Virus record (IMG/VR): IMGVR_UViG_3300020191_000009
Span: 51,373-71,372 of that record
Direction: 5' to 3' (one strand)
DNA from: an uncultured virus (IMG/VR IMGVR_UViG_3300020191_000009)
Lineage: Duplodnaviria; Heunggongvirae; Uroviricota; Caudoviricetes
DNA: 20,000 bases
In this document: piece by piece, positions 4,101 to 19,837 of the stretch
Position numbering within the stretch: the stretch's first letter is position 1
Layout of the letters: every line of letters begins with the position of its first letter
Made by a program: the position numbers and the translations under genes
The notes under the pieces: model-generated
What the model saw: the letters and a program-made list of their open reading frames with translations, nothing else
Told to the model about the DNA's origin: nothing
The model's database searches: none

Positions 4101-7100
4101 ACTAAGCCTTGTGCATCTTCTGGAGGAGAGTCTAGTAAATTTACATCTTCAAGATCTAGTAAATTAGTTACTGTTGATACATAGCTTGCTACCCACTTTT
4201 GACCGTTCCAAGTTAATCCATGTTGGGGAACTAATCCCGCAGAAAAATCAACATCAGCTAAGTCAGCCATATCAGATACGCCTGAAATACTTCCAAGTAT
4301 TAATATTTCAGAAACACTTGCTGCAGGACCTACTATTCCGTAAGAAGTTTCTTCAAGGGTTAGACTTCCGTCAGCCCCAGCATAGTAATATTCTCCAGGA
4401 ACTAAATTAGAGTAAATACTAGAAGTTTTTCCTCCTAGAATTACCACTTCTAGTTGTTCTCCTGTAACTGCTGTCTGTTCTGCAATGCCCATCCAGTCTG
4501 CTGCATTTGATTGTGTAGCTTGCAGTGTTACATCGTATATAAAGAATACCCCTCTATCTGTTGCGGGGAACTGTTGAGTTCCCTGAACATTATCATTATA
4601 CGGAGCACCAACAATAGCACGACCAGAATTTGTTACCGCTACAGAAAATCCAAATAAACTTCCGGAAGGGTTGACAACATAACCCGGGTTTTCAAATGCC
4701 GCATATAGGGGGTACGAAGTAGTGGATGCTCTATTATAGCTATAAAACTTTCCTGAGTCATTGTAACCTAATACGTCATTATTTGCTTCTGAACCTACAA
4801 CGATTTGACTCGATCCCAGCCCTACTGACCTACCGAATTTATCTCCTATCTGATCTGGACTGTTTATTTCTGCAAGCACTGCACCCGAGGTTGTAGAATA
4901 TACCAATACCCTTCCCAAACCTCCATTAAAGTCTGGGGTTCCTGCAACTATGATAGAATCATCCATTTCGAAGGTAAAACCTAGTCCGTTAGATCCTATA
5001 TTAGTATCCTGCAGAGTGTGTATAGTAGACCCAGTATTAATATTACGAACGTATATTCTACCGGTTGATAGCTGTCCTCCAGTATCCTCCCCAGGAGCTC
5101 CAATAGACAAGTAAGTATCTGTTGCGCTCAGTGCAGACCCAAACAGGTCTCCTCCAGTGCCTCCATCATCATTATTATTGTTGAATGTAAAATCAGGAAC
5201 TAAAAGAGGATCCCATCTTGCTTCTGTTTCTCCTTCTGGTATTCCATACTCTGATGACTCTAATAACGAGATAGGATATCTATATACTTTACCTACTAAT
5301 GCATTATTCCCTATATCTACTCGTGGTGCGCCCACTGCTACATAGGTTGAGTTAATAGCTACTGAGGAACCGAACTGCCCTTGGAGAAGAGGCTCAGGGC
5401 TTTCTAGAACTGCTATTAAAGTACCTGAGCTTATTCTATATACGTATACAACGCCAGAATTAACCGCATCTAAATCCTTAAGAGGAGAGCCTACAACTGC
5501 ATAATCATCTTTTATTGCTACTGCAAATCCAAACGCCTGATTAGTTTCTCCTCGCCAAGCCGCGGGCGTTGTGAGGCTTAGGGAGGGTTGTAATGTACGT
5601 ATTAAAGTAGAGTTATCTGTATCATAAATCCTTACTAGGCCGGTTGCGACTCCGCTGTTGGGGCCAATTCTATGATAAGGTGCTGAAACTGCGACACGGC
5701 CGCCTTCTTCTGCAATTGTATGCCCAAAAAGTCCCAAATCTGAGCTAGATGGGAAAGAAGATACCAGCTCCCCTGCAGTTATTGTGGGATTTTCAAACTG
5801 ACCAGAACTATTTAGTACTACTAAGCCGCCTTGTAATATTTGCTCCGCTGCAATACCAGTAATACGCTGTCCCTCGGGTAAGTCTTGAGGAGACCATATT
5901 GAGCCATTATATTGCAATATCTGCAAAGCTGAAGGTAAAACACTACTAAGATCTACGTCTGTTAAATCATCTAATACGTCTACGTTACTTGAACCAGTTA
6001 CAGCATTAACAAAAGACTGAGATACCGCGTTCCAAGTTAAAACCTCCCCTGTTTGAATATTTGAAGGTATAGGTAAATTTATATCATCTAAATCCGATAA
6101 GCTACTAACACCCCCAGCCGCATCTCCTGCTACCCATTGAGAGCTTTGTGCGTTCCAAACAAGCGCCTGGCCGTCTGAAGCAAATGCAGTAACATCTCCA
6201 AGATCATTTAAATTATTTACTTGGTCAGCAGTATTAGATTCAACGTCCCCTGTTATTAAAATGTCGTTTGCACTTAAAGCTTTACCAAAAATACCTAAAT
6301 TTGTGGGAGAACTGTTAAGAGTACCATCAATATTTAAATAATAATTCTGTCCCGGCAATAGATTAACTTGATTGTGTGCTATACCACCAAACAGGGTTAC
6401 TTGTCCTACATCTCCATCTAAAATATCTTCAAAAGCTACTCCTATCCAAGATGAAGCATTACTAGTTATATTAATATCAAAAGCTGTAAGGTGTCCAGAG
6501 TTAAAGTCACCTGAAATAGTATTCCTAGCAAAAGGAGCACCTACGTATAATTTATCATTACCAATAGCAACACTTGAACCAAAGTACTCAGTTGTACTAT
6601 TCCCATATATATTAGGATTGTCAAAATATGCAATAGGAGTACCGGTATCGGCTTCGAAATAATAAGCCTTACCAGCATTAGTATATACTCCTCCTATGTA
6701 CCCCTGATCTTCTCTTCTTGCACCTACTAGTATTTTGTTATCTTTCATATCGATGGAGTAGCCGAACTCATCTCCCTGCGGAAGAGGATAAGTATCAGGG
6801 TTTTGAATAGTATTTATAAGAGTACAAGCTTCATCGGTTACATCATATATATAAACAAGACCTTCATTAGCACCCGTAAAATCCTGCTCTGGTGCAGATA
6901 TAGCTAATCTTTTAATTGATGGATTTCTATCCCATACTATATCAAACCCATGCGTTGCATCTGAACCTCCACCCGGATTTGGATTTGATATAGTATGTAA
7001 TAAAACGGGAAGAGAGTCACTGCTTACGTCATATATATAGACATATCCCTTTACGCTAGTTGTACCTTCTCTGGACGCAGTAACAGCTAAGTATTTTCTA

Positions 7101-10100
7101 TCTTGAGTAAGAGACACTCTTTGGCCAAAGTAATCCCCTGATATACTACCGACTGTATTAGGATTATCAATACGGTATAAAAACCCATATTGAGGGTCTC
7201 CTACACCTATGTCAGGATCGAAAAAGTATACGCATCCAGCTTCTGAGTATTGGTCACTCATATCTTCTAGTGGTGCGCCGACGGCTAAACGAGCCTCACC
7301 ATTATAATCGCTTATAGCTACGTCAGTGCCAAACTGCGCGTTGTTTGTACCATCAGGATTTTGTATTGATAGCCATAAGTCTCCACTAGGGGATGTTCCT
7401 GTAGCCAAGCGGTAGACATAAGCTGCTCCTTGATTATACCCTGTTAGATCATCAGCAAGAAGAGATCCTACCGCTAGAAGGTTACCGCTAGCGTCTAAAG
7501 AATTACCAAATCGGTCCCCTGTTACAGGATTATTTATATTTTCATTTTTAATATAATACTGTTGAGTACCAAAATTATTAAATACGTATACAACCCCAGA
7601 ACTACTTCCTTCTATCTCGTCCTCATATTGAGCACCAGCAATAATATAATCTCCTGATGCAACAACTGCACTAGTAAATTGATCACTGGTAGCCGTACCA
7701 AATATAGTAGGGTTTTCTACATTCCAAGCAGGTAAAAAGGGCTCTTGACCTGTCTTTTTAACTTTTCCAGGAGGGGTAATAGAAACTATATCTCCATCAC
7801 TAATATCTCCATTTGCTATGAAGTTTTCTATACCACCCGAGTGCCCTGCTCTAGGGTACCACTTCTGGGTAGTAGCATCATAAGTAAGTACTTCCTTTTC
7901 TTTTGCTGGGTTTGCAATTACCTCTACATCTAGCAAACTATTAAGAGTTGCAGCAGTAGGTGCTGTTGAGCCAGGAGACCAATTAACTCCGTCCCAGGCT
8001 AAAAATTCTCCGAAACTAGGCTCACTTGCAGTGCCGGGCGTAGTATCTACGTCTGAAAGAGATCCTATACTAATAGTGTCTAAGGCTGGAGAGCCTGGCT
8101 CCCATACGCCTTCAATACCGTTCCAAATTAAAGTTTCTCCTGGAACAGGTGCATAAAGTCCCGCAGTTCTAACATCATCCATGTTATCTAACTGCGTTAC
8201 GGTAATATTAGTAATTTGAACAGGTGTCCAGCCAACGCCCGCTTGATAAGCAATAACATTATCTTGTACAGGCGGCTGAGAAGCTAAATCTACATCGATT
8301 AAGTCCCCAAGCGCAGATACTCTAGAAACTTGACCTGGCTCCCACAGCTCGCTGTTGGCATTATAAACTAATACATCATTATTAACCGCAGATACTGTGG
8401 AAAGATCTATATCATTTAAATCGTTTATTGTTGCTGGGATCGGTATAACACTTGCCTGCCACTCATCAAATTGCAAACTGTAAACTAAGGCGGCATTATC
8501 AACAACCCCGGAAGTATCAACATCTGATAGACTACTTAGAGATAGAGTTCCAGCTTCAATATATGTTGCAAGACCCCATGAAGATCCACTGTATTTAAGA
8601 CCTTGGCCTGCTTGGACTCCCCCAACACTTGTATCTGTTAAGCCACCAAAAGTAGTGATATTACTATATCCTATATTTTTAGGGGCCCACCTATTATTAG
8701 CACTATCCCATACTAAGCCTTGATTGTTAGAGGGAGGAACAGTTACAGTATCTACATCACGGATATCATTTATATAAGTTACTCCGGTTTCAGCAGATAC
8801 TACATTTCCTGTAATAAGCAACTCATCAGCAGCAAGAGCTTTTCCTAACACACCGTAATCTGTCTCAGTCTCAGTTATAAAGCCTCTACCGTCTATATAA
8901 TAGTTTTTATTAATAGTCAGACCGGATACAAACTTATTTACGGCACCTACAGTTGTTACAGTTACTTGTTGAGTAGCTTCTACCGATTGTTCTGATATTC
9001 CTACCCAATCACCAGCATTACTTTCTATGAACGAATCACTAGCAAAAGTTGCAATTTTACCTGTACCTGCAACGGTTAGTCTAGGCGAACCAATAATAAG
9101 ATAGTCGTTCGTAAGAGCTAGACCAAATCCCCAATTTATATTTGTTGCTCCTTCATCTGATAAAAATTCATTTCTAAAAGCTCCCGAGGCGGCCTCGAAC
9201 AAATAAACACTCCCTACATTCTCTCCACTGGCAGAAGCAAGTATATACTCAGTTGTTACAGCAACGCTACTACCAAAATTATCGCCTGTGGGTACGTCTG
9301 CGTTTCTATTAGGGTTGTTAAGAGTATAGTTAAAATCGCCATTATTTAAATTGTATATATACAGTTTTCCGCTGCCCGTATCAGCAGTAGGAGCACCAAC
9401 CACCATACGTCCGTCAGAAGAAATTGCAATAGAGCTACCGAAGTCTCCTGCACCGCCAGGGTTAGAAATAGTATAGATAGAGCTTAAAGTAGCTGCCTCA
9501 TAGACATATACTTTTTCCTCGCTAGGGCTTCCAATAGCTAAATCGCCTGAAGTAGATATTGATATAGCACTACCAAACCCTGTTATGCTGGGAGAGGGAT
9601 TTTCTACAAAGCCTAACTGATTTCCAGTTGCAGTGTTAAATACGTACACTGTGCCAGAGTTAGTATCTGACAAGGATTGAGGCTCTTCATTAATTGCAGT
9701 AACCGCTACATAAGTATTTGTATTCTGTACTCTAAAGCCAAATTGGTCGTCTAACGTTGATGTTGCTGCATTTGGGTTGTCGATAGTATGTTCTAGTATG
9801 AACCCTGGTAAACTATATACATATATTCGGCCTGCATTAGAGTCGTAGCCTGGAGCCCCAATAGTAAAAAACTGGCTTGAAATTGATACCGATTCTCCAA
9901 ATTTATCATTGGCAGTTGCATTGGGGTTGTTTATAGTTTGTACAAGGGTGTTAGTACTTGTAGAGAATATTTCTACCTTACCCCCAACAGTTAAGTACTC
10001 ATACCCTGGAGCTCCCACAATATAATAGTCATCAGATACAAATACACTTTTACCATAGTAATCAGAACTTACTGAAGGGCTACCTGAAGCTTGAAAGATG

Positions 10101-13100
10101 CTGGATACACTACTTTCTATTTCTGCTATTTTTTCGACTTCGCCGTCTGATCTTAAAGCTAGTAGGTCACCTGCTGAAAGGTTTTCAGCGGCTATATAGT
10201 TGGCTACACCTGAGCGAGTTGCAGGTCTCCACTCCCCTGTAGACGCGTTATACTCTAATGTGTTTCTGTTTTGTGGAGGCACTGCCTGAAAATCTACATC
10301 GGTTAAAACATCCAAACCTATAGAAATTACTGCACCTTCTACACTTCTAGTTACCCATGAGTTTGTATCGGGATCCCAAGAAATAAAATCCGAATTGTAG
10401 GGTTCAGTTATTGAAACATCGTCTAAATCTTCTAATCTAAGTCCTATTCCTTCTATGCTGCCCGTAACTACAGTATCTATAGTAGTTCCCGTCCATTTTA
10501 AAAACTTAGAAGAAGGTGTATTTCCCAGATTTTGAAAACCGTTCTCGTTTAGCTGGTTTAATAGAAAAATAGATCTTTCGTTTAGGTCTTCTAAAGCCCT
10601 GGGTATGGGCGCAGGGCTCCAGCTTGCGCCGTTCCATACAAGAGCATCAGACGGTTCTGGCAAACCTGCGACATCAGCTAAATCATATATGCTGTCTGGG
10701 AAGGACGCAGAGCTATAGAATCCTGTGTTACTGTCGTATACTAAAGCAGATCCATCAAAGGGCACACCAGTAACGTCTGCAAGGTTGTTCATGGTATAGT
10801 CACTTGCTCTCATGACCTCGCCTATAGGAGTACTGATAAAGGCGGAAGAAGGGGCGTGCCACGTAAGAATATTGTTCGATGCCTGATTCGCTATATTGTA
10901 ATTAAAATCTGCTAGAGCGCCTGCTCCAAAACTGGGATCTATATTTTCATATCTGTTTGCATCAGCTAGTGTAGTATATCTAAGTATTTGACCTTCTTGA
11001 GGGTTGTCGATACGAACATCATTTAATGCGTCTAATGAATTAGATAGTTGGACGTCACTAGTAGTCCATACTTGGTTTTCATAGTTCCACAGTAAAACCT
11101 CTCCATCTTGCAAAGCAGCTGTTTGAATATCTGTATCTGATAGTTCCGCTAGAGTAAACGTTACTTCTTGCTGCTTGCTAGTAGTACTACCAAAGGTAAT
11201 AAATTGACCGTCTACTAAAGCGTCTACATTTTTATTTACAGTAATGCTAAGTCTGTCTGTAGATATAAATACTACTCTAGGAGCAGACTCTAGTTCCGAG
11301 TGCATTACATAATGATTAACTTCTACATCTGGGCCCACAGGGTCGTTCAGTACAATAGTGTTGCTACCAGTAGTCCCTGCAGGATTGTTATTTACGAATG
11401 ATCCTACATCCTGAGAGATTGCCATAGGAATTACTACTTTAAATATAATAGTAGCGCCTGCAGTTATATCTATATCATAACTTACAGCAAAGCTTAATCT
11501 GTCTCCACTTATTCCACTTACAATAGGAATATTTACATTGCTTCCTATGTAAACAGCGTGACCAGGAACAATTTCTTCAGGCAAAGGAGTATCAAGAAAG
11601 ATCTCACTAGTGGATTCAGTACCTACAACCCCCTGACCAACCTCTACAGTGCCAGTAGTTGCAACTACTTGGTAGACAGGAGGAGTTGCAAAAATAATAG
11701 CCTCAAATTGACTAGTTGATATATTTTCAGAAAGAGTGAGCTCTGTCCTGTCTTCAGATATGCTGTATACAACAGGATACGGCTTAGATAATGAGGGTGT
11801 TTGAAATAAGTCGCCCGGCTTTACGTTTTCAGGAATAACATCCGTTGCAGGTACAGTATCAGTATTAGTAACAGTCTCAGAAACAAACCCAGTTCCAGTT
11901 TCGATAGGTTCTTCTATATCTTCATCAACGTCTAAAGAGGGAATTTCTATTATATCCCCGTCTTCCGTTTCAACGGTTCCGCCAGTACTTCCTCCACCCC
12001 CGTCAGGGTTTGGGCTAGGAGTAGTAGTAGTACCCCCTCCAGTATCGCCACCGCCAGTACTTCCTCCTCCACCACCAGTAATAGTAGCAGGCGCCCACTT
12101 AGTTCCATTCCAAACAAGAGACTGACCGGGTTGGGGCGAAATAGTAGAAGTATCTACATCAAACAAGTCTCCAATGCCGCCAAAATTACTAACAAAGCCT
12201 AAGGTGAACTGGTTTGCATAGGTACCCGTTGTATTAAATATAGGTACCATACCTTGTTGGCCACTCCACTGGCCTCCGGTATCTGCAAGATCTCTAAACC
12301 TGGGCATAGTTGAAACGGCTTGGCCAGGAACCCAATTAGCACCATCATACTGAAGATATGTTCCTGTAGCTAATCCGGTTGTTAAATCTACATCATTTAT
12401 ATCTCCAAGATCGGTTTCTAAATTTACCGGGGATGAAATCCAAGTCTGAGTAGGACCATTGTATGTGAGCAGATCTCCATCATTTACTTGAACAAAATTT
12501 ACATTACTAAGTTCTCCCAGCTCTACAGGCTCATCAATTAAAATTTGATTTATTGATTTAGGAACCCATTCTATGTTAAAATTATCCCAAGCAAGTAAGT
12601 GGCTTTTAGGTATGCCAGCTTCAAAACCGTTATAAGTATCGACATCATCAAGATTACTTATTTGACCAGTTACTGAGGCATAGGCTGGAACCCATTTTTG
12701 TGCATTGGTATTCCATTGAAGAAATTGTTGAGAAAGAGGAGCTGTCGATAGTGTATCCACATCCTCTAGTTCTGTTATGCTTTTGGGTATACCTGCTATG
12801 CTAGGATTTGGCTCGACATCACCGGTAATAAGAACGGTGCTTGCATCTATACTTATGCCAATGGCGCCGCTTCCTACATCACTGGTGCGAAGACTTCCTC
12901 GGTATAACCTTGAATTATCAATATAAATTGGAGTACCAGGAACAAAATTACTCGGCTGTGAACCACCTATCCAACTAGTAACCTTCGTCTGGCCCCCTAA
13001 AATAGTTATAATTCCAGAATTATAGTCACTTGAACCACTAGAAAAACTTTCATCTGCGATACCAAACCAGTCTTTAATATTAGTTACTGGATTGTTCCCA

Positions 13101-15064
13101 TAGGTTATAGCCCGTACTCCCGTAGCTAAATCTAACGGAACTATCATTCTACTTTCTGTTAGCCCACTAGTAGAAGCGGGATGTATGCTTCCATTTATTA
13201 TAAAAGAATCATAAGTATCGTCTGAAGCTGCCTCAGCTCCGTCTATATCTACAATGGGGCGGCCACTCCATTCACTATATGCAATAGTTGTTGTAAAGAG
13301 TTCTATATCATTGGTGTCAGAGTTCTCTCTCCCCCATAAAATAACTGCCGCCCTATCTGTAGTGGATGCTAAGACTGCAGGCCTAATATTTGACATGTTA
13401 TACGGGGTAGGCCCTGAGCCAGTTCCATCTTCGAAGAAATATCTGGAGTACAACGAGTTGTCTGTTACCGTGCTAGTACCTGTGGCGCTAGCAGTAAACC
13501 TTGTGACCTTTCCACGAGGGGGACTAACCGTATTATCTTTATAAGCAACCCAGCAAGAGCTACCGTCTGGAAGTATAGTTACAAAAGGAAAACTTAAGTC
13601 ATCATCAAATGTTCTTGGTGTTCTATAAGTTGCAAATACCCCCGTAAGTAAAGTGACCATCGAGTAGCCTTCACTGATTTGGTCAGTAAATACAGTAACG
13701 TGCCTATTAGTTGTAGGAGCATAAACAGTATGAAGGTCGTAAACTTCCCTGGTTGTAAAAGCAGTGGGCGGCTGAAAAAGTACGTCTAAGCCATCTATTT
13801 CACCTACTCGACCTATACCTACGCCTCCTCCGTTTAAAGAGTTATCCGCATAATGAAAAATTAAATTTCCGCTTTGTGTGTCAGAAGAGACGGAGTGAGA
13901 GCCGATAGCCTCGCCCAAAGAAAAATCGATAGGAAACTGCGACATGCTTACCGCAAACCCTGCAATTGTAACTACACGAGTATATCCAATATTGGTAATA
14001 ATATCTTTCCAGGCAAAAATAACTCGAGTAGTTGCTATATCATACGTAACGGAGAACTCTCCTCCGACGCCGGTAGCAAACTCATGGACAGTGGTGTCCA
14101 TAGTTATCTCTACACCATCATCATCTACTTCTCCAATTACAAACTCGCCCGCACCTGTAGTAGCATTAATAAATGCTACAATAAATTTTTTCTGAGAGCT
14201 TAGCCATAGCGAATGAGTTTGAGCGCCTAACTGATTACCAACAGTTTCTGATTGACCAAACTCAGGAGGTAGATAAGAGATAGGAAAGACTACAGTTCTG
14301 TTATTCTGTCTACCTACTGTAACAGCCTTTCCTGCAGTAATGTTAGTATTGAGTGCGGCTGATACAGTTAGTTTTCCGACAGTAGCTGGTGTTCCAGGAA
14401 TCCACTGTTCTAAAACGTCATCGTATATTAAAGATTCGCCAGCCTTCGGAGTTGTGAGGTAGTTTACATCTGTTAAGTTTTCTATTTCTAGAACAGGACT
14501 TGTACTTACCCAAAAAGACCCGTCAAAAGCGAGTACATCATTTTCAGAGGCACCTGTAACATTTACATTTACAAGATCATTTAAATAAACGGAACTTAAA
14601 GCTGCCGCAGAGGTTGCGGTCCAGAGAGAGGTTTGAGCATCGTATGCAAGAATAGATCCGTCTGAAACAGTAGAAACATCGAAATCTGAAAAGTCTGTGA
14701 TTTCAAGAGCTTTTGGAACGTAGTTACTGCCGTCATGAATGAGTACGGCACCGAGAAATCCAGCACCGCTCGAGTCATTGAGTTCTGAAAAAGAATAAGG
14801 ATTATTAGTGTGATAAGAAGCAACATAAGATTTTACTGCTTCTTCAGTAGGAAGTATTACTGACCCGTCTATAGAATTCAGAGTCGGGTCATTTGTGAAC
14901 GCAAGAATCTGTAGCACACCGTCTGAGAGGGTACTAAAATTCAGTTGTCCAAATTGGGCGTCATCTCCACTTTCGTACTTAGTTGTATTTAAGTAAGTGA
15001 AGTTTCCGTCTAGCTCTGTAAAAGTAAGTTCTGTGCCTTTTACAAGTCGTAGTACTAAAGCCAT
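1121..15064 (-). CDS. Giant (4647 aa) phage fibre/adhesin-like virion protein with about 41 fibre repeats and five beta-propeller modules, several of FG-GAP/integrin-alpha type
   Basis: 13.9-kb uninterrupted ORF. The N-terminus LVLRLVKGTELTFTELDGNFTYL is a motif typical of phage fibre/virion-anchor N-termini. Recurrent LxDLxDV..P..GQxLxW(D/N)G..W repeats; FG-GAP blades such as FGESVSIS..IGAPG, FGSSVAI..VGAP and FGYSID..VGA. C-terminal ATRASFPSLGNLGDLSFAQDTGALYVWEGTVW fibre motif followed by a ~100-aa beta-rich terminal domain. Confidence 0.9.
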   Translation of the reverse strand: MALVLRLVKGTELTFTELDGNFTYLNTTKYESGDDAQFGQLNFSTLSDGVLQILAFTNDPTLNSIDGSVILPTEEAVKSYVASYHTNNPYSFSELNDSSGAGFLGAVLIHDGSNYVPKALEITDFSDFDVSTVSDGSILAYDAQTSLWTATSAAALSSVYLNDLVNVNVTGASENDVLAFDGSFWVSTSPVLEIENLTDVNYLTTPKAGESLIYDDVLEQWIPGTPATVGKLTVSAALNTNITAGKAVTVGRQNNRTVVFPISYLPPEFGQSETVGNQLGAQTHSLWLSSQKKFIVAFINATTGAGEFVIGEVDDDGVEITMDTTVHEFATGVGGEFSVTYDIATTRVIFAWKDIITNIGYTRVVTIAGFAVSMSQFPIDFSLGEAIGSHSVSSDTQSGNLIFHYADNSLNGGGVGIGRVGEIDGLDVLFQPPTAFTTREVYDLHTVYAPTTNRHVTVFTDQISEGYSMVTLLTGVFATYRTPRTFDDDLSFPFVTILPDGSSCWVAYKDNTVSPPRGKVTRFTASATGTSTVTDNSLYSRYFFEDGTGSGPTPYNMSNIRPAVLASTTDRAAVILWGRENSDTNDIELFTTTIAYSEWSGRPIVDIDGAEAASDDTYDSFIINGSIHPASTSGLTESRMIVPLDLATGVRAITYGNNPVTNIKDWFGIADESFSSGSSDYNSGIITILGGQTKVTSWIGGSQPSNFVPGTPIYIDNSRLYRGSLRTSDVGSGAIGISIDASTVLITGDVEPNPSIAGIPKSITELEDVDTLSTAPLSQQFLQWNTNAQKWVPAYASVTGQISNLDDVDTYNGFEAGIPKSHLLAWDNFNIEWVPKSINQILIDEPVELGELSNVNFVQVNDGDLLTYNGPTQTWISSPVNLETDLGDINDVDLTTGLATGTYLQYDGANWVPGQAVSTMPRFRDLADTGGQWSGQQGMVPIFNTTGTYANQFTLGFVSNFGGIGDLFDVDTSTISPQPGQSLVWNGTKWAPATITGGGGGSTGGGDTGGGTTTTPSPNPDGGGGSTGGTVETEDGDIIEIPSLDVDEDIEEPIETGTGFVSETVTNTDTVPATDVIPENVKPGDLFQTPSLSKPYPVVYSISEDRTELTLSENISTSQFEAIIFATPPVYQVVATTGTVEVGQGVVGTESTSEIFLDTPLPEEIVPGHAVYIGSNVNIPIVSGISGDRLSFAVSYDIDITAGATIIFKVVIPMAISQDVGSFVNNNPAGTTGSNTIVLNDPVGPDVEVNHYVMHSELESAPRVVFISTDRLSITVNKNVDALVDGQFITFGSTTSKQQEVTFTLAELSDTDIQTAALQDGEVLLWNYENQVWTTSDVQLSNSLDALNDVRIDNPQEGQILRYTTLADANRYENIDPSFGAGALADFNYNIANQASNNILTWHAPSSAFISTPIGEVMRASDYTMNNLADVTGVPFDGSALVYDSNTGFYSSASFPDSIYDLADVAGLPEPSDALVWNGASWSPAPIPRALEDLNERSIFLLNQLNENGFQNLGNTPSSKFLKWTGTTIDTVVTGSIEGIGLRLEDLDDVSITEPYNSDFISWDPDTNSWVTRSVEGAVISIGLDVLTDVDFQAVPPQNRNTLEYNASTGEWRPATRSGVANYIAAENLSAGDLLALRSDGEVEKIAEIESSVSSIFQASGSPSVSSDYYGKSVFVSDDYYIVGAPGYEYLTVGGKVEIFSTSTNTLVQTINNPNATANDKFGESVSISSQFFTIGAPGYDSNAGRIYVYSLPGFILEHTIDNPNAATSTLDDQFGFRVQNTNTYVAVTAINEEPQSLSDTNSGTVYVFNTATGNQLGFVENPSPSITGFGSAISISTSGDLAIGSPSEEKVYVYEAATLSSIYTISNPGGAGDFGSSIAISSDGRMVVGAPTADTGSGKLYIYNLNNGDFNYTLNNPNRNADVPTGDNFGSSVAVTTEYILASASGENVGSVYLFEAASGAFRNEFLSDEGATNINWGFGLALTNDYLIIGSPRLTVAGTGKIATFASDSFIESNAGDWVGISEQSVEATQQVTVTTVGAVNKFVSGLTINKNYYIDGRGFITETETDYGVLGKALAADELLITGNVVSAETGVTYINDIRDVDTVTVPPSNNQGLVWDSANNRWAPKNIGYSNITTFGGLTDTSVGGVQAGQGLKYSGSSWGLATYIEAGTLSLSSLSDVDTSGVVDNAALVYSLQFDEWQASVIPIPATINDLNDIDLSTVSAVNNDVLVYNANSELWEPGQVSRVSALGDLIDVDLASQPPVQDNVIAYQAGVGWTPVQITNITVTQLDNMDDVRTAGLYAPVPGETLIWNGIEGVWEPGSPALDTISIGSLSDVDTTPGTASEPSFGEFLAWDGVNWSPGSTAPTAATLNSLLDVEVIANPAKEKEVLTYDATTQKWYPRAGHSGGIENFIANGDISDGDIVSITPPGKVKKTGQEPFLPAWNVENPTIFGTATSDQFTSAVVASGDYIIAGAQYEDEIEGSSSGVVYVFNNFGTQQYYIKNENINNPVTGDRFGNSLDASGNLLAVGSLLADDLTGYNQGAAYVYRLATGTSPSGDLWLSIQNPDGTNNAQFGTDVAISDYNGEARLAVGAPLEDMSDQYSEAGCVYFFDPDIGVGDPQYGFLYRIDNPNTVGSISGDYFGQRVSLTQDRKYLAVTASREGTTSVKGYVYIYDVSSDSLPVLLHTISNPNPGGGSDATHGFDIVWDRNPSIKRLAISAPEQDFTGANEGLVYIYDVTDEACTLINTIQNPDTYPLPQGDEFGYSIDMKDNKILVGARREDQGYIGGVYTNAGKAYYFEADTGTPIAYFDNPNIYGNSTTEYFGSSVAIGNDKLYVGAPFARNTISGDFNSGHLTAFDINITSNASSWIGVAFEDILDGDVGQVTLFGGIAHNQVNLLPGQNYYLNIDGTLNSSPTNLGIFGKALSANDILITGDVESNTADQVNNLNDLGDVTAFASDGQALVWNAQSSQWVAGDAAGGVSSLSDLDDINLPIPSNIQTGEVLTWNAVSQSFVNAVTGSSNVDVLDDLTDVDLSSVLPSALQILQYNGSIWSPQDLPEGQRITGIAAEQILQGGLVVLNSSGQFENPTITAGELVSSFPSSSDLGLFGHTIAEEGGRVAVSAPYHRIGPNSGVATGLVRIYDTDNSTLIRTLQPSLSLTTPAAWRGETNQAFGFAVAIKDDYAVVGSPLKDLDAVNSGVVYVYRISSGTLIAVLESPEPLLQGQFGSSVAINSTYVAVGAPRVDIGNNALVGKVYRYPISLLESSEYGIPEGETEARWDPLLVPDFTFNNNNDDGGTGGDLFGSALSATDTYLSIGAPGEDTGGQLSTGRIYVRNINTGSTIHTLQDTNIGSNGLGFTFEMDDSIIVAGTPDFNGGLGRVLVYSTTSGAVLAEINSPDQIGDKFGRSVGLGSSQIVVGSEANNDVLGYNDSGKFYSYNRASTTSYPLYAAFENPGYVVNPSGSLFGFSVAVTNSGRAIVGAPYNDNVQGTQQFPATDRGVFFIYDVTLQATQSNAADWMGIAEQTAVTGEQLEVVILGGKTSSIYSNLVPGEYYYAGADGSLTLEETSYGIVGPAASVSEILILGSISGVSDMADLADVDFSAGLVPQHGLTWNGQKWVASYVSTVTNLLDLEDVNLLDSPPEDAQGLVYDNNTSKWVPANIGYSNVAQFSDLNNVDVSNATVGQSIEWNGVNWIPTTFSSVNSINDLTDVNTTTLKVDYDILTWSESADEWIIDKRNFGNFLNLEAYAPTQPIQAGDPVYITDDGKVAAIKGTETVLGTESLVNTLYPPVSNSNFGTNLAVSKDIIVVGNPYFTSGNILSTGRAYIYNATSGQLLYTLEPPTDYSLQSFGWGVATNGSEVAITAKESPSNNDYGRIYLYDAYTGALLRQIVNPEDSVSTNGPFAQHNSVVMTSSYLIVGNSNWRDATLGTTPGKAYVFNIFTGTQEYSFNNPNPSNGADFGRYINIDESESIISITDTGTGSSLTHIYELSDYSFRTTIDHSLVGVVADKFALNTNYLITGSNQHGYLSVWSTVSGANLYSKPIISSSGKDIVCNDKQVAVITGSSDGVKYYDIASGLELANFSVGSSFQSGAMYKTKLIHKSNLGEVLNYNLSGIKTNTRAADWVGINESLTYDGDIAKINTGSGVTSSVTNLVTGLNYYVSIDGSLFPGPTGFGKIGRAIDSTTILISSNTSNIDLDEESTAALIAGINDLTDVDIFTSFPADNNFLQYDSSSALWVPGTAAITLLNDVTISNLQDKNLLVYSTDTSSWENSSISTSELSDVDYTTPIESGQTLVWDGNTSSFKPGVTDRSITSLNDVDDQAPSVGQILIWDDISTQWVAQDNVSTLEGLTDVDISGVSNNQFLQYNNVTSLWEPGDVATSIAELTDVNVSGGITDGQYLVYNLNTSVWLPQDLPEFAAAIVDLTDVNADSPTQGQGLIFDDQTNKFELAIVGTSNVDTLDDLSNVSVPAPNDGDVLKYNSNSSAWEATPTPSPAVIYATRASFPSLGNLGDLSFAQDTGALYVWEGTVWYNLKRTNAFYLVRAGNFTGPLEGQQVFQPQQAITLHEIRAQVDQPSGETLIFAVMKNSVEVQQFVMPSAQGIVEAAFTSGVTVGLVDEITLDIISGPGTNLSVKFIYS
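1575..14791 (-). repeat. About 41 degenerate 30-40-aa protein repeats (LxDLxDVd...P..gqxLx[WY]dg..W) in blocks of 4/6/8/8/3/4/8 separated by globular modules
   Basis: Counted by eye in the translation, e.g. IENLTDVNYLTTPKAGESLIYDDVLEQW, LEDLDDVSITEPYNSDFISWDPDTNSW, LDDLSNVSVPAPNDGDVLKYNSNSSAW. Diverged at the DNA level. Confidence 0.85.
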
Positions 15065-15067
15065 TCT

Positions 15068-15358
15068 CTATCCAATAGTTACTAGTGTTGCTGCGATTCC
15101 TGAGGTGATCAAGCCGGTGACGGCGATCCATAGCAGTCTAGTAATGCTTTGCAGAATATGGCCGTGGTTATCGATATCTCTAAGTGCGACCGTTTGCATA
15201 ATTTCAATATCTGTAACTCTCGATTCAATTTTGTCTCTTGCGTCATCTAAGTCTGAAATTTGCTCTTCTACTCTTGCTAGTGCTACTACTAGTTCTGTTA
15301 ATTTGTCAATTTTGTTCTCTATTCGATCTATGCGATTATTCTGTTGCTCCAGCTCCAT
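15068..15358 (-). CDS. Coiled-coil protein with one C-terminal TM helix (XhlA-like/holin-like phage membrane protein, 96 aa)
   Basis: Heptad-rich N-terminus (RIDRIENKIDKLTELVVALARVEEQI) and hydrophobic C-terminus (LLWIAVTGLITSGIAATLVTIG). Overlaps the end of terS by 23 nt and stops 3 nt before the giant gene. Confidence 0.7.
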   Translation of the reverse strand: MELEQQNNRIDRIENKIDKLTELVVALARVEEQISDLDDARDKIESRVTDIEIMQTVALRDIDNHGHILQSITRLLWIAVTGLITSGIAATLVTIG

Positions 15359-15809
15359 TTAATAATTTTTCCATCAACTTACCGTAGTTGCCTTGCCCAA
15401 AAGGAATACCTTCATTAATCTGTACATTCGTTTGACTACGAATAGTGGCTGCATTGGACGCCTTTTCAGCTTCTGCCAACGCTTTAATTTCGTCCATTCT
15501 CATTTTATGGGCCATGACCATCAGATCCGCTAGATCCTTTGATGTATACATACCGCTCTCTTGAGCCTCTTCTAGCTTTGATGCTATCATTTCGTCAAGA
15601 ACAGCTGCAATATTATTTTTATTCCTGTACCCCATATCTAAATACACAGTGTCTACATAACGCTTTACTTCACGCGTATTTAAAATTTCTACTACCCTAT
15701 GTTCTGGCACAGACATGTATTCGCAAACTGCCTTTATGTTGCCGTATTGGAGATAGCAATTAGCTACTTCTACTCCTTCGGGAGATATTATAGAAACTTC
15801 TTTTGACAT
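15336..15809 (-). CDS. terS: Terminase small subunit, T5-like (157 aa from ATG 15809)
   Basis: Motifs SPEGxxVxxxYLQxG, GYRN, VLDExIxxKLEExxExG, AHKMxMxE and QTNxQ match my recollection of T5-family TerS. The TTG start at 15845 in the ORF track is the -35 box of the promoter, so ATG 15809 is the likely start. Confidence 0.8.
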   Translation of the reverse strand: MSKEVSIISPEGVEVANCYLQYGNIKAVCEYMSVPEHRVVEILNTREVKRYVDTVYLDMGYRNKNNIAAVLDEMIASKLEEAQESGMYTSKDLADLMVMAHKMRMDEIKALAEAEKASNAATIRSQTNVQINEGIPFGQGNYGKLMEKLLNGAGATE

Positions 15810-15994: not shown

Positions 15995-16025
15995 ACAAAG
16001 TTTTACGTAAAGATGGGGCCGCGCG

Positions 16026-16041
16026 CGTCAAAATTTTGACG
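16026..16041. promoter_or_regulatory. Perfect 16-bp palindrome CGTCAAAATTTTGACG (copy 1 of CGTCAA-N4-TTGACG), putative protein-binding site
   Basis: Exact palindrome; a second copy with the same arms is at 16145-16160. Confidence 0.65.
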
Positions 16042-16075
16042 GTCTCTTAACCGCCCCCTCCTGGGCAGGCGCGCG

Positions 16076-16088
16076 TAACCTATTGATT
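16076..16088 (-). promoter_or_regulatory. IHF-binding consensus (AATCAATAGGTTA = WATCAANNNNTTR)
   Basis: Exact match to the IHF core consensus on the minus strand, with A/T-rich DNA on its 5' side; lies about 46-58 bp upstream of the predicted sigma54 start. Confidence 0.6.
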
Positions 16089-16106
16089 TATAAGGGAAAA
16101 ATAAAG

Positions 16107-16123
16107 TTGGCACGATTCCTGCT
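16107..16123 (+). promoter_or_regulatory. Sigma54 (RpoN) -24/-12 promoter element TTGGCACGATTCCTGCT
   Basis: Matches YTGGCACGRNNNTTGCW with one mismatch (C for T) and exact GG-N10-GC spacing; points toward the pre-early cassette. Confidence 0.65.
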
Positions 16124-16143
16124 TAAGAGCTAGGGCACGCCCC

Positions 16144-16161
16144 GCGTCAAACTATTGACGC
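16144..16161. promoter_or_regulatory. Inverted repeat GCGTCAA-ACTA-TTGACGC (copy 2 of CGTCAA-N4-TTGACG)
   Basis: Same arms and 4-nt spacer length as 16026-16041, 119 bp away; followed by the palindrome TATAAGCTTATA at 16171-16182. Confidence 0.65.
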
Positions 16162-16189
16162 ACATTTGGTTATAAGCTTATAGCACATC

Positions 16190-16234
16190 GATATAAAAAA
16201 CCCTGTACATTTGGAATTAGACCCTGTAAAATCC
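16190..16234 (+). promoter_or_regulatory. Pre-early sigma70-type promoter, copy 1 (A-tract, TGTACA-17-TAAAAT)
   Basis: gatataaaaaa cc cTGTACAtttg gaattagacc ctgTAAAATcc; 34/45 identical to 16397-16441, with identity concentrated in the UP, -35 and -10 parts. Confidence 0.75.
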
Positions 16235-16263
16235 ATCACATATAAAAACAAAAGGTATAAAAA

Positions 16264-16374
16264 ATGTTTCACGATTTATTCACTAGAGCGCTCTTAGGAA
16301 TTATTGGCATGGTAATTGCCTTAGCAATTCTGATGCCAATAGCAGGATCGTTCTTGCTAAACCTTATACCATAA
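16264..16374 (+). CDS. Small single-TM membrane peptide (36 aa) MFHDLFTRALLGIIGMVIALAILMPIAGSFLLNLIP
   Basis: Translated by hand (below the ORF-track cut-off); AAGGT SD-like motif, own promoter directly upstream, strongly hydrophobic. Confidence 0.7.
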   Translation: MFHDLFTRALLGIIGMVIALAILMPIAGSFLLNLIP

Positions 16375-16396
16375 TGGAATATCGTTATTCTATCTT

Positions 16397-16441
16397 GATA
16401 TAAAAAATACTGGACATTTGCAGAATACCTCTGTAAAATCC
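16397..16441 (+). promoter_or_regulatory. Pre-early sigma70-type promoter, copy 2 (A-tract, TGGACA-17-TAAAAT)
   Basis: gatataaaaaa ta cTGGACAtttg cagaatacct ctgTAAAATcc, about 40 bp upstream of the A2-like gene, which has a TAAGGA SD. Confidence 0.78.
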
Positions 16442-16482
16442 TACCCATGCAATAAAGCATTAATCACTAAGGAAAAAAAGTT

Positions 16483-16779
16483 ATGGCTACATACACTGAA
16501 AAAATGGTTAAGCGAATGCGCGATCTTGCACCCCTTGACCTAGACAAAGCAAAGGCGCTTGCCGACGAATTCGGTTCCGTGTCTTATCGCTCTATCATCG
16601 CCAAAGCCAAAAGCGAAGGCGTTGACTATATCGCTAAAGCTCCAGCGGCTAAAAGGCCAAAAGGCCCAACTAAACGCGAGCTTGTGAGTGCTATCGAGCG
16701 ATCTCTGGGATTACCCGAGAGTGACCGCGAAAATCTCACCGTTGATGGCTTAAGCCGCGTTTTAGAGCATCTCGCGTGA
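16483..16779 (+). CDS. A2: T5 A2-like pre-early DNA-binding protein (98 aa)
   Basis: Basic helical protein with YTEKMV...LADEFGSVSYRSIIAK...Y.AK...K.ELV.AI...L, the pattern I recall for A2-family proteins; supported by proximity to dmp. Confidence 0.62.
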   Translation: MATYTEKMVKRMRDLAPLDLDKAKALADEFGSVSYRSIIAKAKSEGVDYIAKAPAAKRPKGPTKRELVSAIERSLGLPESDRENLTVDGLSRVLEHLA

Positions 16780-16973
16780 TTGCGGTTTGCTCTTGGATAG
16801 GCACCGCGCTGCTTGGCGCGGCTCCCTTCCTCATTGACATGCCAGCGGGTAAACTCATGGCGATCATTGGACTTGCTCTGTTATGCTTGCAAGCATACGA
16901 GAAAAAATGCTACAATCTGCTTATATTAAACACAATAGGGATTATCGGTTATGCTTCCAATTTTTTTATTTGA
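16776..16973 (+). CDS. Small multi-TM membrane protein (65 aa)
   Basis: GTGA start/stop overlap with the A2-like gene; three hydrophobic segments (WIGTALLGAAPFLI, LMAIIGLALLCLQA, LLILNTIGIIGYA). Confidence 0.75.
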   Translation: MIAVCSWIGTALLGAAPFLIDMPAGKLMAIIGLALLCLQAYEKKCYNLLILNTIGIIGYASNFFI

Positions 16974-17418
16974 TCTCGACGAGACTGTCATCGACTCGAC
17001 CCACCGTCAAGGTGAGACGTTAAGCGACTGGCGCAGAATGAATACACCCGCAAACGTCATGCGCGACTCTACGCTTCCGCTTGCTTCTACAATGATTCAA
17101 GCCATCTCGGAAGGGTTAGACGTTGGCATTTGTACTTCTCGCGTCATGGGTAGCGTTGATCGCGTTTGGCTACGCATGCGCGGAATGCTGCCAGCGTTTA
17201 CGCTTTCGCGTTCAATCGATGACAATCGACCCGCTGGTGAATTCAAGCTCGCCAAAATGTCAGAGCTTGCGATTGCTCGCCGCGTTTCGTTCGACGAAAT
17301 TCGTCGTCGCGTTATCCTTTGGGATGACAACGCAGACGTGCAACAAACTTTAAAAAATGCTGGCTTTCGTGTAATCGATCCGGTAAAATATAACCAAGCA
17401 AAAAAGGTAGCTGCATAA
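16951..17418 (+). CDS. dmp: HAD-family phosphatase, T5 Dmp-like deoxynucleoside-5'-monophosphatase (155 aa)
   Basis: HAD motif I FDLDETVIDSTHR, motif II ICTSR, Lys in EFK, motif IV LWDDN. DSTLPL, ICTSRVM..D..WLR..G and GF..ID...N parallel T5 Dmp as I recall it, without its long acidic C-terminal tail. Confidence 0.78.
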   Translation: MLPIFLFDLDETVIDSTHRQGETLSDWRRMNTPANVMRDSTLPLASTMIQAISEGLDVGICTSRVMGSVDRVWLRMRGMLPAFTLSRSIDDNRPAGEFKLAKMSELAIARRVSFDEIRRRVILWDDNADVQQTLKNAGFRVIDPVKYNQAKKVAA

Positions 17419-18152
17419 TGAGCAAGAAACAATATATAGCGACAATCGATGTTGAAACAACGCAAGATCACAAGGTCGCTGATTTTGCTTGCACTATCAC
17501 AGACCGCAAGGGGCGCATTCACGCTCAATGCGCTGTCATGGTTGACGGCATTTTCACGGATGCAGAAAATCACCCGCTCTTTTTTAATAAGGATGCTGGC
17601 CCTTCTGCGCTATGGTCTCGCAAATCAGCAGACCGACGGTATGCAAAATATCAAAAAATGGTACAGGATGGCTCGCGCATGATTGCAAGCGTGGGCGCGA
17701 TTAACCGCTGGTTAGAGCGGGCGGTCGGAAAATACGACCCAATCTTGACCGCTTACAATCTAGGCTTTGATTCTGGCAAAATGTCAAATACTGGAATAGA
17801 TCACTCTATTTTTTCTCAGCGCTTCTGCCTCTGGCAAGCGGCCTGCGTAAAATGGGCATCCTCTACGGCATATAAAAATTTCATCATGCAAAATCATTAC
17901 TTTAATCCGCCTACTGCTTTCGGCAATATGACTTACCAAACCAACGCCGAGGTTATGGCGCGATTCGTTACGGGTCAAGATTTGCCAGACGAGCCACATA
18001 CAGCGTTAGAGGATATTATCGGTTACGAATTGCCTATATTGAACGCAATCATAAAACGCGGTAAAATGTCCGACATCATAGATTCTTGCGTTGGCTATAA
18101 CTGGCGCGACTATCAAGCAAAAAATCATTTTACTGCAAAAAAGGTTGCATGA
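17418..18152 (+). CDS. DEDDh (DnaQ-like) 3'-5' exonuclease (244 aa)
   Basis: ExoI TIDVETT, ExoII AYNLGFD, ExoIII PHTALEDI; start overlaps the dmp stop (TAATG). Confidence 0.88.
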   Translation: MSKKQYIATIDVETTQDHKVADFACTITDRKGRIHAQCAVMVDGIFTDAENHPLFFNKDAGPSALWSRKSADRRYAKYQKMVQDGSRMIASVGAINRWLERAVGKYDPILTAYNLGFDSGKMSNTGIDHSIFSQRFCLWQAACVKWASSTAYKNFIMQNHYFNPPTAFGNMTYQTNAEVMARFVTGQDLPDEPHTALEDIIGYELPILNAIIKRGKMSDIIDSCVGYNWRDYQAKNHFTAKKVA

Positions 18153-18153
18153 T

Positions 18154-18264
18154 ATGAAAACCAAATTGCTCGCTTTAGCTTTCAAGGCTTATATAATTTA
18201 CTCGCTATGCGCTGATTTTATTCTCGTTTGCGGTATAATCTGGCTTCTTTTGGAGACTGTATAA
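18154..18264 (+). CDS. Small hydrophobic peptide (36 aa) MKTKLLALAFKAYIIYSLCADFILVCGIIWLLLETV
   Basis: Translated by hand; fills the gap between the exonuclease stop (18152) and ppk2 start (18266) with 1-nt spacing on each side; AAGGT upstream. Confidence 0.7.
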   Translation: MKTKLLALAFKAYIIYSLCADFILVCGIIWLLLETV

Positions 18265-18265
18265 T

Positions 18266-18883
18266 ATGAAATTAAAAACAGAACAGGCGCGACTGAATCG
18301 CAATCTCGAAAATCTAGCGCTCGATAGAATCTGCGTGGTGCTCGAAGGTCGCGACACTGCCGGAAAATCCTCGACGATTCGCGAGGTGACGCACTATCTG
18401 AATCCTGCGCTTTATTCTGTGCATCTATCGCGCAAGCCTAGCAAGTCCACCATGAAAAAATGGCTTGCGTATTGGTCGCGTAGAATGCCAGCATATAACC
18501 AGATCGTTTTTTATGATCGATCATGGTATAGCCGCGCAATGGTTCAACGCTTAAACGGTTGGTGCTCAGAAACTCAATATAAGAATTTTCTAGCGAATCA
18601 TAAATCATGGGAAAAATCGCAAGGCGTTCGCATGATTAAATTTTGGCTTTCAATTTCCGAGGATGAACAACGCGCACGAATTGAGCGCAGAAAAAAATCG
18701 CCATTGACCTACTGGAAATTTTCCGAGAATGACGAGAATGCGCTCTCATACTATGACCGCATGACTCTATTAAAAGAGCGCGTGATTGATTCTGATTGGC
18801 ATGTGATCGACTACAACGACAAGCGGCAAGGCATCTATTCCCTTTTGGAAACACTCAATACCACACTTGAAAATTTGGAATAG
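18266..18883 (+). CDS. ppk2: Polyphosphate kinase 2 family protein (205 aa, single domain)
   Basis: Walker A VVLEGRDTAGKSSTI, Walker B FYDRSWYSR, IKFWLSISEDEQRARI, PLTYWKFSEND and WHVIDYNDKR are all PPK2 hallmarks; GGAG SD. Confidence 0.93.
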   Translation: MKLKTEQARLNRNLENLALDRICVVLEGRDTAGKSSTIREVTHYLNPALYSVHLSRKPSKSTMKKWLAYWSRRMPAYNQIVFYDRSWYSRAMVQRLNGWCSETQYKNFLANHKSWEKSQGVRMIKFWLSISEDEQRARIERRKKSPLTYWKFSENDENALSYYDRMTLLKERVIDSDWHVIDYNDKRQGIYSLLETLNTTLENLE

Positions 18884-18891
18884 GTCGCGCA

Positions 18892-18907
18892 TGTTTCACG
18901 TGAAACA
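18892..18907. promoter_or_regulatory. parS: parS centromere-like site TGTTTCACGTGAAACA (ParB/Spo0J loading site)
   Basis: Exact 16/16 match to the canonical chromosomal parS palindrome, intergenic, 8 bp after the ppk2 stop. Confidence 0.88.
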
Positions 18908-18911
18908 CTCT

Positions 18912-18959
18912 CGCCAAAAATTTCTTGAAAAAAGCATTGACTTCTTGAAATTTTTGGCG
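18912..18959. repeat. 13-bp perfect inverted repeat CGCCAAAAATTTC-N22-GAAATTTTTGGCG (hairpin/cruciform or possible terminator of the pre-early operon)
   Basis: Arms at 18912-18924 and 18947-18959; also contains TTCTTGAAA twice. No clean U-tail. Confidence 0.7.
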
Positions 18960-18969
18960 CGGGGGCGCC

Positions 18970-19203
18970 AGTGCGAAAGCGAAGTGCAAATCCGATTGGT
19001 GTTACGTCCTTGCGGGTGCGTGTATGGTGGATCAAAAGGTAGTCTTCGGGGAAAGTTGCGGAAAATTTTGTAGAAAATTTGCTCGCGCCGATTATAGTGG
19101 GAAATCGATGCGATGTCAAGGACTTTTTGCGGGTGTGTTGTAATTAGTTTAAATTTGCGCAGGTCTCGGCTGCGCCGAAGCAAGTGCGAAAATGAAGTGC
19201 AAA
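18970..19203 (+). repeat. 21-bp direct repeat AGTGCGAAA(GC/AT)GAAGTGCAAA at 18970-18990 and 19183-19203
   Basis: 19/21 identical; each copy is itself an AGTGC tandem and has GCGCC shortly upstream. Confidence 0.8.
19091..19119 (-). promoter_or_regulatory. Perfect sigma70 promoter TTGACA-17-TATAAT pointing back toward parS/ppk2
   Basis: Minus strand: TTGACA tcgcatcgatttcccac TATAAT; no credible gene downstream on that strand. Confidence 0.8.
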
Positions 19204-19525: not shown

Positions 19526-19554
19526 TTGACAACGTAATCAAATGGTAGTATAAT
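19526..19554 (+). promoter_or_regulatory. Strong early sigma70 promoter TTGACA-17-TATAAT with upstream A-tracts
   Basis: TTGACA acgtaatcaaatggtag TATAAT, followed by AAGGAG SD and GTG at 19583. Confidence 0.9.
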
Positions 19555-19582: not shown

Positions 19583-19837
19583 GTGGCAAAGCAAAAGATC
19601 TTTTGTGTGATAGACGACAAAACCTGTGCAATAAAAGGTGCGTACTCTAACTTTGAGACAGCTATCAATTTAGCTAAAGCTTTCTCTACAGTAGAAGACA
19701 TACACCACTCTATAAAGTCTATACCCTTTGACTTCATAGACTTTACAGTGTTGGGCCAAGCAGTAATCAAAAAAACAGAATTTAAAGAGGGTGAGAAGTT
19801 TAAAATTCTTGACCAGAATACCAAAATTGTGGTATAA
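19583..19837 (+). CDS. Hypothetical early phage protein (84 aa)
   Basis: GTG start with AAGGAG SD directly behind a consensus promoter; AT-rich codon style returns here. Confidence 0.8.
   Translation: MAKQKIFCVIDDKTCAIKGAYSNFETAINLAKAFSTVEDIHHSIKSIPFDFIDFTVLGQAVIKKTEFKEGEKFKILDQNTKIVV

Follow-up and report, generated by a model that had tools for sequence, protein, structure and literature searches.

Among phages, a centromere on the viral DNA is familiar from the plasmid-prophages P1 and N15, which encode their own ParA and ParB and use site sequences of their own. For a host-type parS in a lytic phage there is a precedent in phi29, which carries five such sites and relies on the host protein Spo0J (ParB) for spore entrapment, as described in PMC2731898. 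The CTP-dependent loading of ParB clamps and their spreading on DNA are established (PMC7053999, PMC8367383). For the T5-like phages, Davison (bioRxiv 10.1101/866236) described DnaA boxes that occur in pairs within the iss of 25 phages and proposed, without experiment, that membrane-bound DnaA stops injection there; the same preprint states that injection in two steps is confirmed for T5 and BF23 alone and that circular T5 DNA has the length of the genome less one repeat copy, and its main text holds no match to parS, ParB or Fur. The mechanism of the injection stop is still described as poorly understood in a paper of 2026 (PMC13250531).

The window analysed here is a stretch of 20,000 nt from an uncultured virus (positions 51,373 to 71,372 of IMG/VR record IMGVR_UViG_3300020191_000009). 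The 16-mer TGTTTCACGTGAAACA occupies positions 18892-18907 and starts 8 bp past the stop of the polyphosphate kinase 2 ORF at 18266-18883. The features on which the argument draws are the following.

15336..15809, minus strand: small terminase subunit at the end of the late region (phrog_3802, E 3e-37)
16021..18987, no strand: probable direct terminal repeat or first-injected block of ~2.95 kb (depth, contig breaks, gene order)
16483..16779, plus strand: A2/D5-family small DNA-binding protein (a profile of marine homologs matches T5 A2 at E 6.5e-7 and pVp-1 A2 at 4e-12)
16776..16973, plus strand: small hydrophobic protein, kept in relatives, with no family match
16951..17418, plus strand: HAD phosphatase resembling T5 Dmp (31% over 86 aa, E 1e-10; phrog_415)
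17418..18152, plus strand: probable RNase T/DEDD-type exonuclease, a lead only (atlas neighbours with PF00929 at 0.94-0.95)
18266..18883, plus strand: polyphosphate kinase 2, ppk2 (PF03976, E 6e-42)
18892..18907, no strand: parS of the chromosomal consensus type, a ParB loading site, present once (sequence, consensus identity, kept in 124/151 clusters)
18912..18959, no strand: AT-rich inverted repeat separating parS from the GC motif, with little sequence conservation (arms at 18912-18929 and 18942-18959)
18953..18972, plus strand: conserved GC motif of the iss-like region (motif scans of relatives), containing a plus-strand match to the T5 major-nick consensus
18965..18996, plus strand: repeat also found among the repeats of the T5 iss region and in the terminal repeat of phi 3, JSF10 and JSF12 (blastn)
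19526..19554, plus strand: sigma70-type promoter, by a 12/12 consensus match only, preceding the first early ORF at 19583-19837

The original prediction of an exact intergenic parS just after ppk2 is borne out by these coordinates, and so is its judgement that a chance 16/16 match in 20 kb is very unlikely, the number of exact matches expected in the window being 6e-7 to 7e-6 (Markov orders 0-3). The scan of the full genome that it had called for was run on the 71,372-bp contig and returned one copy at up to three mismatches to the consensus; when a degenerate version of parS was scanned, a lone three-mismatch match appeared at 8132. The palindromy of the 16-mer is by itself unremarkable, since the contig has seven perfect 16-bp palindromes, and the weight rests on identity to the parS consensus and on conservation in relatives, not on symmetry. 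The window 16-mer is the consensus parS, and is distinct from the Noc site NBS, including its discriminating G and A positions, both sites being taken as used by Jalal et al. (PMC7383237). It sits in a phage genome and not near oriC of a bacterial chromosome, and would work like a chromosomal parS without being one.

Judged by homology, and not by formal family assignment, the phage belongs to a distant T5-like (Demerecviridae-like) clade, as had been predicted and as its terminase, A2-like and dmp-like genes indicate. The large terminase matches 908 cultured records, with Vibrio, Salmonella, Escherichia and Klebsiella phages the commonest among them, and is 47-49% identical to the best cultured matches. 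T5-like membership is further supported by D5 and a replication module beside the T5-type terminase; the near-identical genome G001 (98% complete) carries genes for D5, primase, polymerase and helicase. The stretch is present in each of the 24 runs listed, which are without exception salt-marsh metagenomes from one year.

A short block separates the terminase from the first early promoter; it encodes the A2/D5-family protein, the small hydrophobic protein, the dmp-like and exonuclease-like proteins and PPK2, and the order of terS, the A2-like, dmp-like and following genes and then the early genes is that of T5. The original reading of this block as a pre-early cassette stands as regards dmp and A2, which are present as distant homologs (A2 shows no significant match to T5 A2 by pairwise BLAST alone). 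For A1, also a gene of the T5 first-step-transfer region, none of five genomes (G000-G002, G004, G005, four of them 91-100% complete) gave a T5 homolog at E <= 1 in a single-sequence query run with no positive control. The exonuclease-like product of 17418-18152 is not A1, to which it has no similarity in pairwise comparison; a PDB search with it gave no match, and the gene is skipped in some strains, a joint omitting 17419-18154 being found in two of four runs. An exchangeable exonuclease-like gene occupies the pre-early block where a T5 A1 homolog is absent, and A2/D5-family paralogs number two to four per locus or genome, spread over pre-early and early regions (window 16483-16779; L387:12916-13299 and 14837-15139).

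Contig depth is flat outside ~16,020-18,990 and raised inside it in four of four salt-marsh runs (~1.5-4.5x on long exact pieces), and contigs break at both edges of the block, at ~16021-16050 and 18932-18987. Together with the gene order, this pattern fits a probable terminal repeat of ~3 kb at 16021-18987, the corresponding first block being ~10 kb in T5. Alternatively, the block is a module common to co-occurring strains; the depth pattern is no proof of a terminal repeat, because loose ends show that other strains carry the block too, inflating depth.

The lack of parA and parB in the window, noted from the start, extends to five genomes. PF02195, PF17762 and PF13614 matched in none of the five, whereas the positive controls did match; HTH_ParB and ParA (AAA_31) gave no match in this contig and four related genomes of 91-100% completeness, and ParB_N none in G000-G004. 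The phage-encoded ParB for which a search had been advised was thus found in none of the five, which implies a host protein. Since the phage genomes are without ParA and ParB genes, host ParB is the likely binder, and it very probably binds the phage parS. The marine phage differs in this from P1 and N15, for it has no par genes and its site is the host chromosomal consensus.

Conservation of the site was assessed in relatives chosen by the downstream GC motif alone, to avoid selecting on parS, and a parS was called at up to one mismatch to the degenerate consensus. The motif scan of IMG/VR gave 86 loci in 69 clusters, 68 of them with at least 150 bp upstream; parS lies within 150 bp upstream of the motif in 56 of the 68, mostly at 57-61 bp, and at 183-265 bp in four more, with no other parS in the 399,802 flanking bases of this set and none in 193 kb farther upstream. 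Metagenome contigs (at least 120 loci) yielded 77 of 93 clusters with parS, and the set with a TTCGG variant of the motif 7 of 14, one of the 14 being an unrelated phage. The low-GC TTCGG group (8 of 23 loci) was an unrelated phage with a chance motif match in a coding region and was removed from the pool. With this group and 11 clusters with less than 270 bp upstream left out, parS is found within 270 bp upstream of the motif in 124 of 151 pooled clusters, 27 (18%) being without it, so that the conservation in T5-like relatives on which the original prediction had staked its case is indeed seen, at the iss-like boundary. For the clade as a whole the rate may fall short of 82%, since in a set chosen by terminase (80 loci) 11 reach the motif and 4 of the 11 have parS. 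Loci found through ppk2, which were not dereplicated, have parS in 33 of 44 cases, and four of the other 11 end within 90 bp of the gene. Exactly one parS is present in eight of eight larger marine contigs (G000-G005, G029, G030), L141 and L147 having two, and none occurs elsewhere in the 21 parS-negative fragments, all of them at most 51% complete. When IMG/VR was scanned at random for exact copies of the 16-mer, at least 137 loci were returned, none of the 137 listed having the iss motif, and the result is uninformative on this clade.

Chance and assembly artefact are ruled out by this conservation, by an expectation below 1e-5 and by the same site in near-identical contigs; the parS site is real and under selection. 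A functional link between ppk2 and parS (e.g. CTP supply) was rejected as a rule, as ppk2 moves or is missing while parS stays: in one locus (L174) ppk2 lies ~3.5 kb farther downstream and parS is still at the boundary. The adjacency of the two is incidental.

Identity to the window is 0.90 inside the site versus 0.28 and 0.43 in its 16-bp flanks, and best matches are bimodal, with either at most one or at least five mismatches. Among 56 sites only positions 1, 5, 8, 9, 12 and 16 vary, partly by construction owing to the one-mismatch filter, and one metagenome site differs at position 14. Positions 5 and 12 read C5/G12 in 35 of the 56, T5/A12 in 11 and the non-palindromic C5/A12 in 10, the half-sites swapping independently; on a dmp tree covering 55 of the 68 clusters there were at least 11 changes at these positions and five changes of presence, in pre-early genes that may recombine. 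PMC7022226 gives the same forms as parS or half-sites of Pseudomonas, Caulobacter, Myxococcus and Vibrio chromosome I. Judging from its variants, the site seems to evolve like a host ParB site, and the frequency of the non-palindromic hybrids disfavours a hairpin role. In two of 50 ppk2 matches (L312 and L320, which stand apart on the dmp tree) parS lies in frame inside ppk2, reading VSRET, a string found in none of the other 48; these two loci are without intergenic parS, and their in-gene site is 257-265 bp upstream of the motif.

The GC motif begins 61 bp past the start of parS and is followed by the GTGCAAATCCGA repeat, which is present in the annotated T5 iss region. The spacer after parS had been described as repeat-rich, and it proved to be so, with a repeat common to the iss regions of T5 and phi 3: its best blastn match among 50,697 phage records is the terminal-repeat copy of phi 3 (33 nt, 91%, E 0.01), and a second, degenerate copy of the iss-type repeat lies at 19180-19203. 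T5-type direct repeats are also found downstream of the motif in 52 of the 68 clusters at up to two mismatches, and folding of the region is somewhat more favourable than that of shuffled sequence (z -2.2). The match to the T5 major-nick consensus (as given in PMC3517423) is on the plus strand, whereas T5's own nick at the corresponding place is on the minus strand; a nick at the GC motif is only a guess, which gets no support from the contig ends, these showing no clustering at the motif. Two 12/12 sigma70 matches in the spacer, at 19119-19091 and 19390-19361 on the minus strand, point back to the iss-like region and have no evident gene. Palindromes that we take to be Fur-box-like occur upstream of the motif in 22 of the 68 clusters, enriched 13-fold beside parS, and also in the T5 iss (L191:9551-9720); the window itself has none.

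T5, phi 3, Ceto and pVp-1 each have one or two consensus DnaA boxes within the 350 bp ahead of the repeats, whereas the same upstream slot holds one in a single cluster of 151 marine clusters, in none of the 68 of the IMG/VR set and none in the window spacer. By this comparison parS would sit in the iss slot that holds DnaA boxes in cultured T5-like phages. The replacement of DnaA boxes by parS is not clean, as 13 of the 68 marine clusters have a DnaA-consensus box downstream of the motif. The locus resembles the T5 iss in its non-coding repeat region after the pre-early genes, its GTGCAAATCCGA-type repeat, its host-protein sites upstream and, in the clade, its Fur-like palindromes, and differs from it in having parS where T5 has DnaA boxes and in lacking an A1 homolog.

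Two of 13 cultured T5-like records carry parS, namely phi 3 and JSF10 (Jesfedecavirus, Demerecviridae), which are two of eight Vibrio records. In phi 3 (L205) the sites are intergenic, at 821-836 and 2934-2949, and in JSF10 they lie at 88001 and 90149, each pair flanking A1; the JSF10 sites have a central CATG variant also present in marine sites. The two phages share with the marine clade chromosomal-type parS in the pre-early arm, here two of them, and no ParB above cut-off, and both phi 3 sites lie inside the annotated terminal repeat of the phage whose iss repeat is closest to that of the window. They differ in that parS flanks A1 and not iss, A1 and the DnaA boxes being kept; in phi 3 parS lies 4.6-6.7 kb from iss, where the DnaA boxes remain. 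These sites were found in this analysis and are without annotation in the record stretches viewed. Vibrio species other than V. cholerae also have parABS. For V. cholerae itself the system is described in PMC7022226; since six of the eight Vibrio T5-like records are without the site, a parABS host is not sufficient for a phage parS, and a general rule that T5-like phages of parABS hosts carry parS is not supported (2/8 Vibrio, 2/13 cultured overall).

Outside the T5-like phages, the Arthrobacter phage Racecar (L396/L550) has one perfect parS ~150 bp from the right edge of its 20,468-bp terminal repeat, and the Arthrobacter phage Mimi (L559) has the same spacing, both sites being ~140-155 bp from the right end. 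Both phages resemble the window in having a single perfect parS, near the right edge of what in the window is a probable terminal repeat and in the two phages a long one, and differ in their actinobacterial host, and Racecar gave no match to ParB_N or to a T5-type terminase. A rule that long-repeat phages in general carry parS is not supported, the site being found in none of SPO1, phiCbK, Jay2Jay and K, all of which have long repeats, annotated in the case of phiCbK and K. Perfect parS cores also occur six times in JasmineDragon (L398, Arthrobacter phage) and twice in PatrickStar (L397, Gordonia phage), with no ParB_N match in either.

Taken together, it is a real possibility, if somewhat short of probable, that the 16-mer is a host ParB loading site selected at the right edge of the terminal repeat as a handle on the entering DNA. 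What we observe is the sequence of the site, how it is conserved and placed, and that par genes are lacking from the phage; the steps of entry are what we infer. Once the first block of ~3 kb had entered, the bases that emerge last would include parS; clamps of host ParB-CTP would load at it and spread, building a protein handle beside the entry point, and this handle could stop back-sliding as a ratchet and couple the DNA to ParA and the nucleoid or to polar anchors during pre-early expression. The second copy of parS, near the right genome end, would be handled likewise at the completion of entry. The strict position is the main argument for such an entry handle, and we also count in its favour the placements in phi 3/JSF10 and in Racecar, which may be read as convergence. 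Staged injection in the clade is only assumed, as none of five genomes has an A1 homolog, and parS is better regarded as an entry aid or accessory than as an essential stop signal, since it is dispensable in some relatives, A1 is missing and the layout in phi 3 is different. The DnaA tether is itself a proposal only. It is conceivable, although doubtful, that the marine T5-like lineage exchanged the logic of DnaA boxes and A1 for a host ParB CTP clamp gating entry at the trailing edge, Racecar and Mimi having arrived there independently. The original suggestion that host ParB is recruited onto the first-injected DNA retains from this the site at the iss-like boundary and the lack of a phage ParB, its role in injection being our inference.

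Several of these observations would also suit a hijack of host partitioning as in phi29, by which host ParB and ParA would position or segregate the genome after entry (for instance by retaining a genome stalled in a starving cell or handing it to a daughter cell) and leave entry itself unaffected. The five parS of phi29 and their use with Spo0J provide the precedent (PMC2731898), and the lack of phage par genes, the scattered sites of the par-less phages JasmineDragon (six) and PatrickStar (two) and the dispensability of parS in 18% of clusters are in agreement with it. Partitioning, however, works from any position, and the confinement of parS to 270 bp by the iss-like motif, with none in 400 kb of flank, leads us to consider it unlikely. 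The position at the repeat edge fits roles in end processing as well as it fits the entry handle: ParB on both repeat copies might bridge or shield the ends for circularisation, or mark the edge for repeat regeneration or packaging. Bridging is an established activity of ParB and counts for this reading; the right parS copy would be ~100 bp from the genome end, if 16021-18987 is the repeat, and in Racecar and Mimi it is ~140-155 bp from it. The size of T5 circles, one repeat short of the genome in the preprint of Davison, points the same way, but the sites of phi 3 are distant from the repeat edge and the long-repeat phages SPO1, phiCbK, Jay2Jay and K are without parS (0/4), which makes end processing quite unlikely.

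Spreading of ParB could also act on transcription, as a roadblock dampening or insulating the pre-early operon, whose transcription runs toward the site. ParB represses parS-adjacent genes in Pseudomonas as described in PMC7022226, the phi 3 sites flank A1, and the two 12/12 minus-strand promoter matches are directed at the site; however, it is the operon's 3' end that has the site, in no case its promoter end, and the site can fall inside ppk2, so that we regard a roadblock as very unlikely. No more credit can be given to a binder other than ParB, be it a phage A2/D5 paralog recognising the palindrome or a hairpin within the iss structure: several A2/D5-family DNA-binding paralogs per genome and the folding of the region (z -2.2 versus shuffles) are compatible with it, whereas non-palindromic hybrids are common (10/56), the variant spectrum is that of host parS (PMC7022226), the same 16-mer occurs in unrelated phages and the A2 paralogs persist in clusters without parS. 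The titration of ParB from the host origin by amplified phage parS, disturbing host segregation or replication, had been among the original suggestions and fares worst. The number of copies would rise during phage replication, but arrays of sites would be expected of such a sink, which also has no need of a fixed position, and one site per assembled genome is the case in eight of eight larger marine contigs, with two in L141 and L147; we hold it to be highly improbable.

The fixed placement of parS at the terminal-repeat edge appears to be new, host parS on a lytic phage being known: the literature covered, which largely left subscription papers outside, describes parS neither in the terminal repeats of T5-like phages nor at iss. 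The arrangement would carry the exploitation of host ParB by phages past phi29 and sporulation. Across more than 100 marine lineages the same iss slot presents a natural swap for a different and biochemically well-understood host site, which supports the idea of the iss region as a docking platform for host DNA-binding proteins. The 16-bp target is mutable and brings the question of which host factor acts at the T5 injection stop within reach of a test, its own function being putative, and the comparison points to cultured phages with the same arrangement.

As to the host, the hints conflict, cultured relatives infecting Gammaproteobacteria versus an alpha-like permuted tmRNA in three of nine genomes. 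Terminase matches in 11 GTDB contigs sit in taxonomically inconsistent MAGs, ppk2 homologs gave no informative context, and the part of PMC4611503 consulted has no T5-like SAG virus. The permuted, two-piece tmRNA, alpha-like by Rfam, lies at L387:11817-12073 (minus strand) in G001 and is also present in G002 and G012, the genes of the three genomes differing in their tag peptide. The early region of G001 further encodes an IscU/NifU-like Fe-S scaffold (L386:15078-15458, minus strand). Near the small terminase, the window holds a repetitive ORF of 4,647 aa (1121-15064, minus strand), which by its sequence is probably a tail fibre or adhesin-like virion protein.
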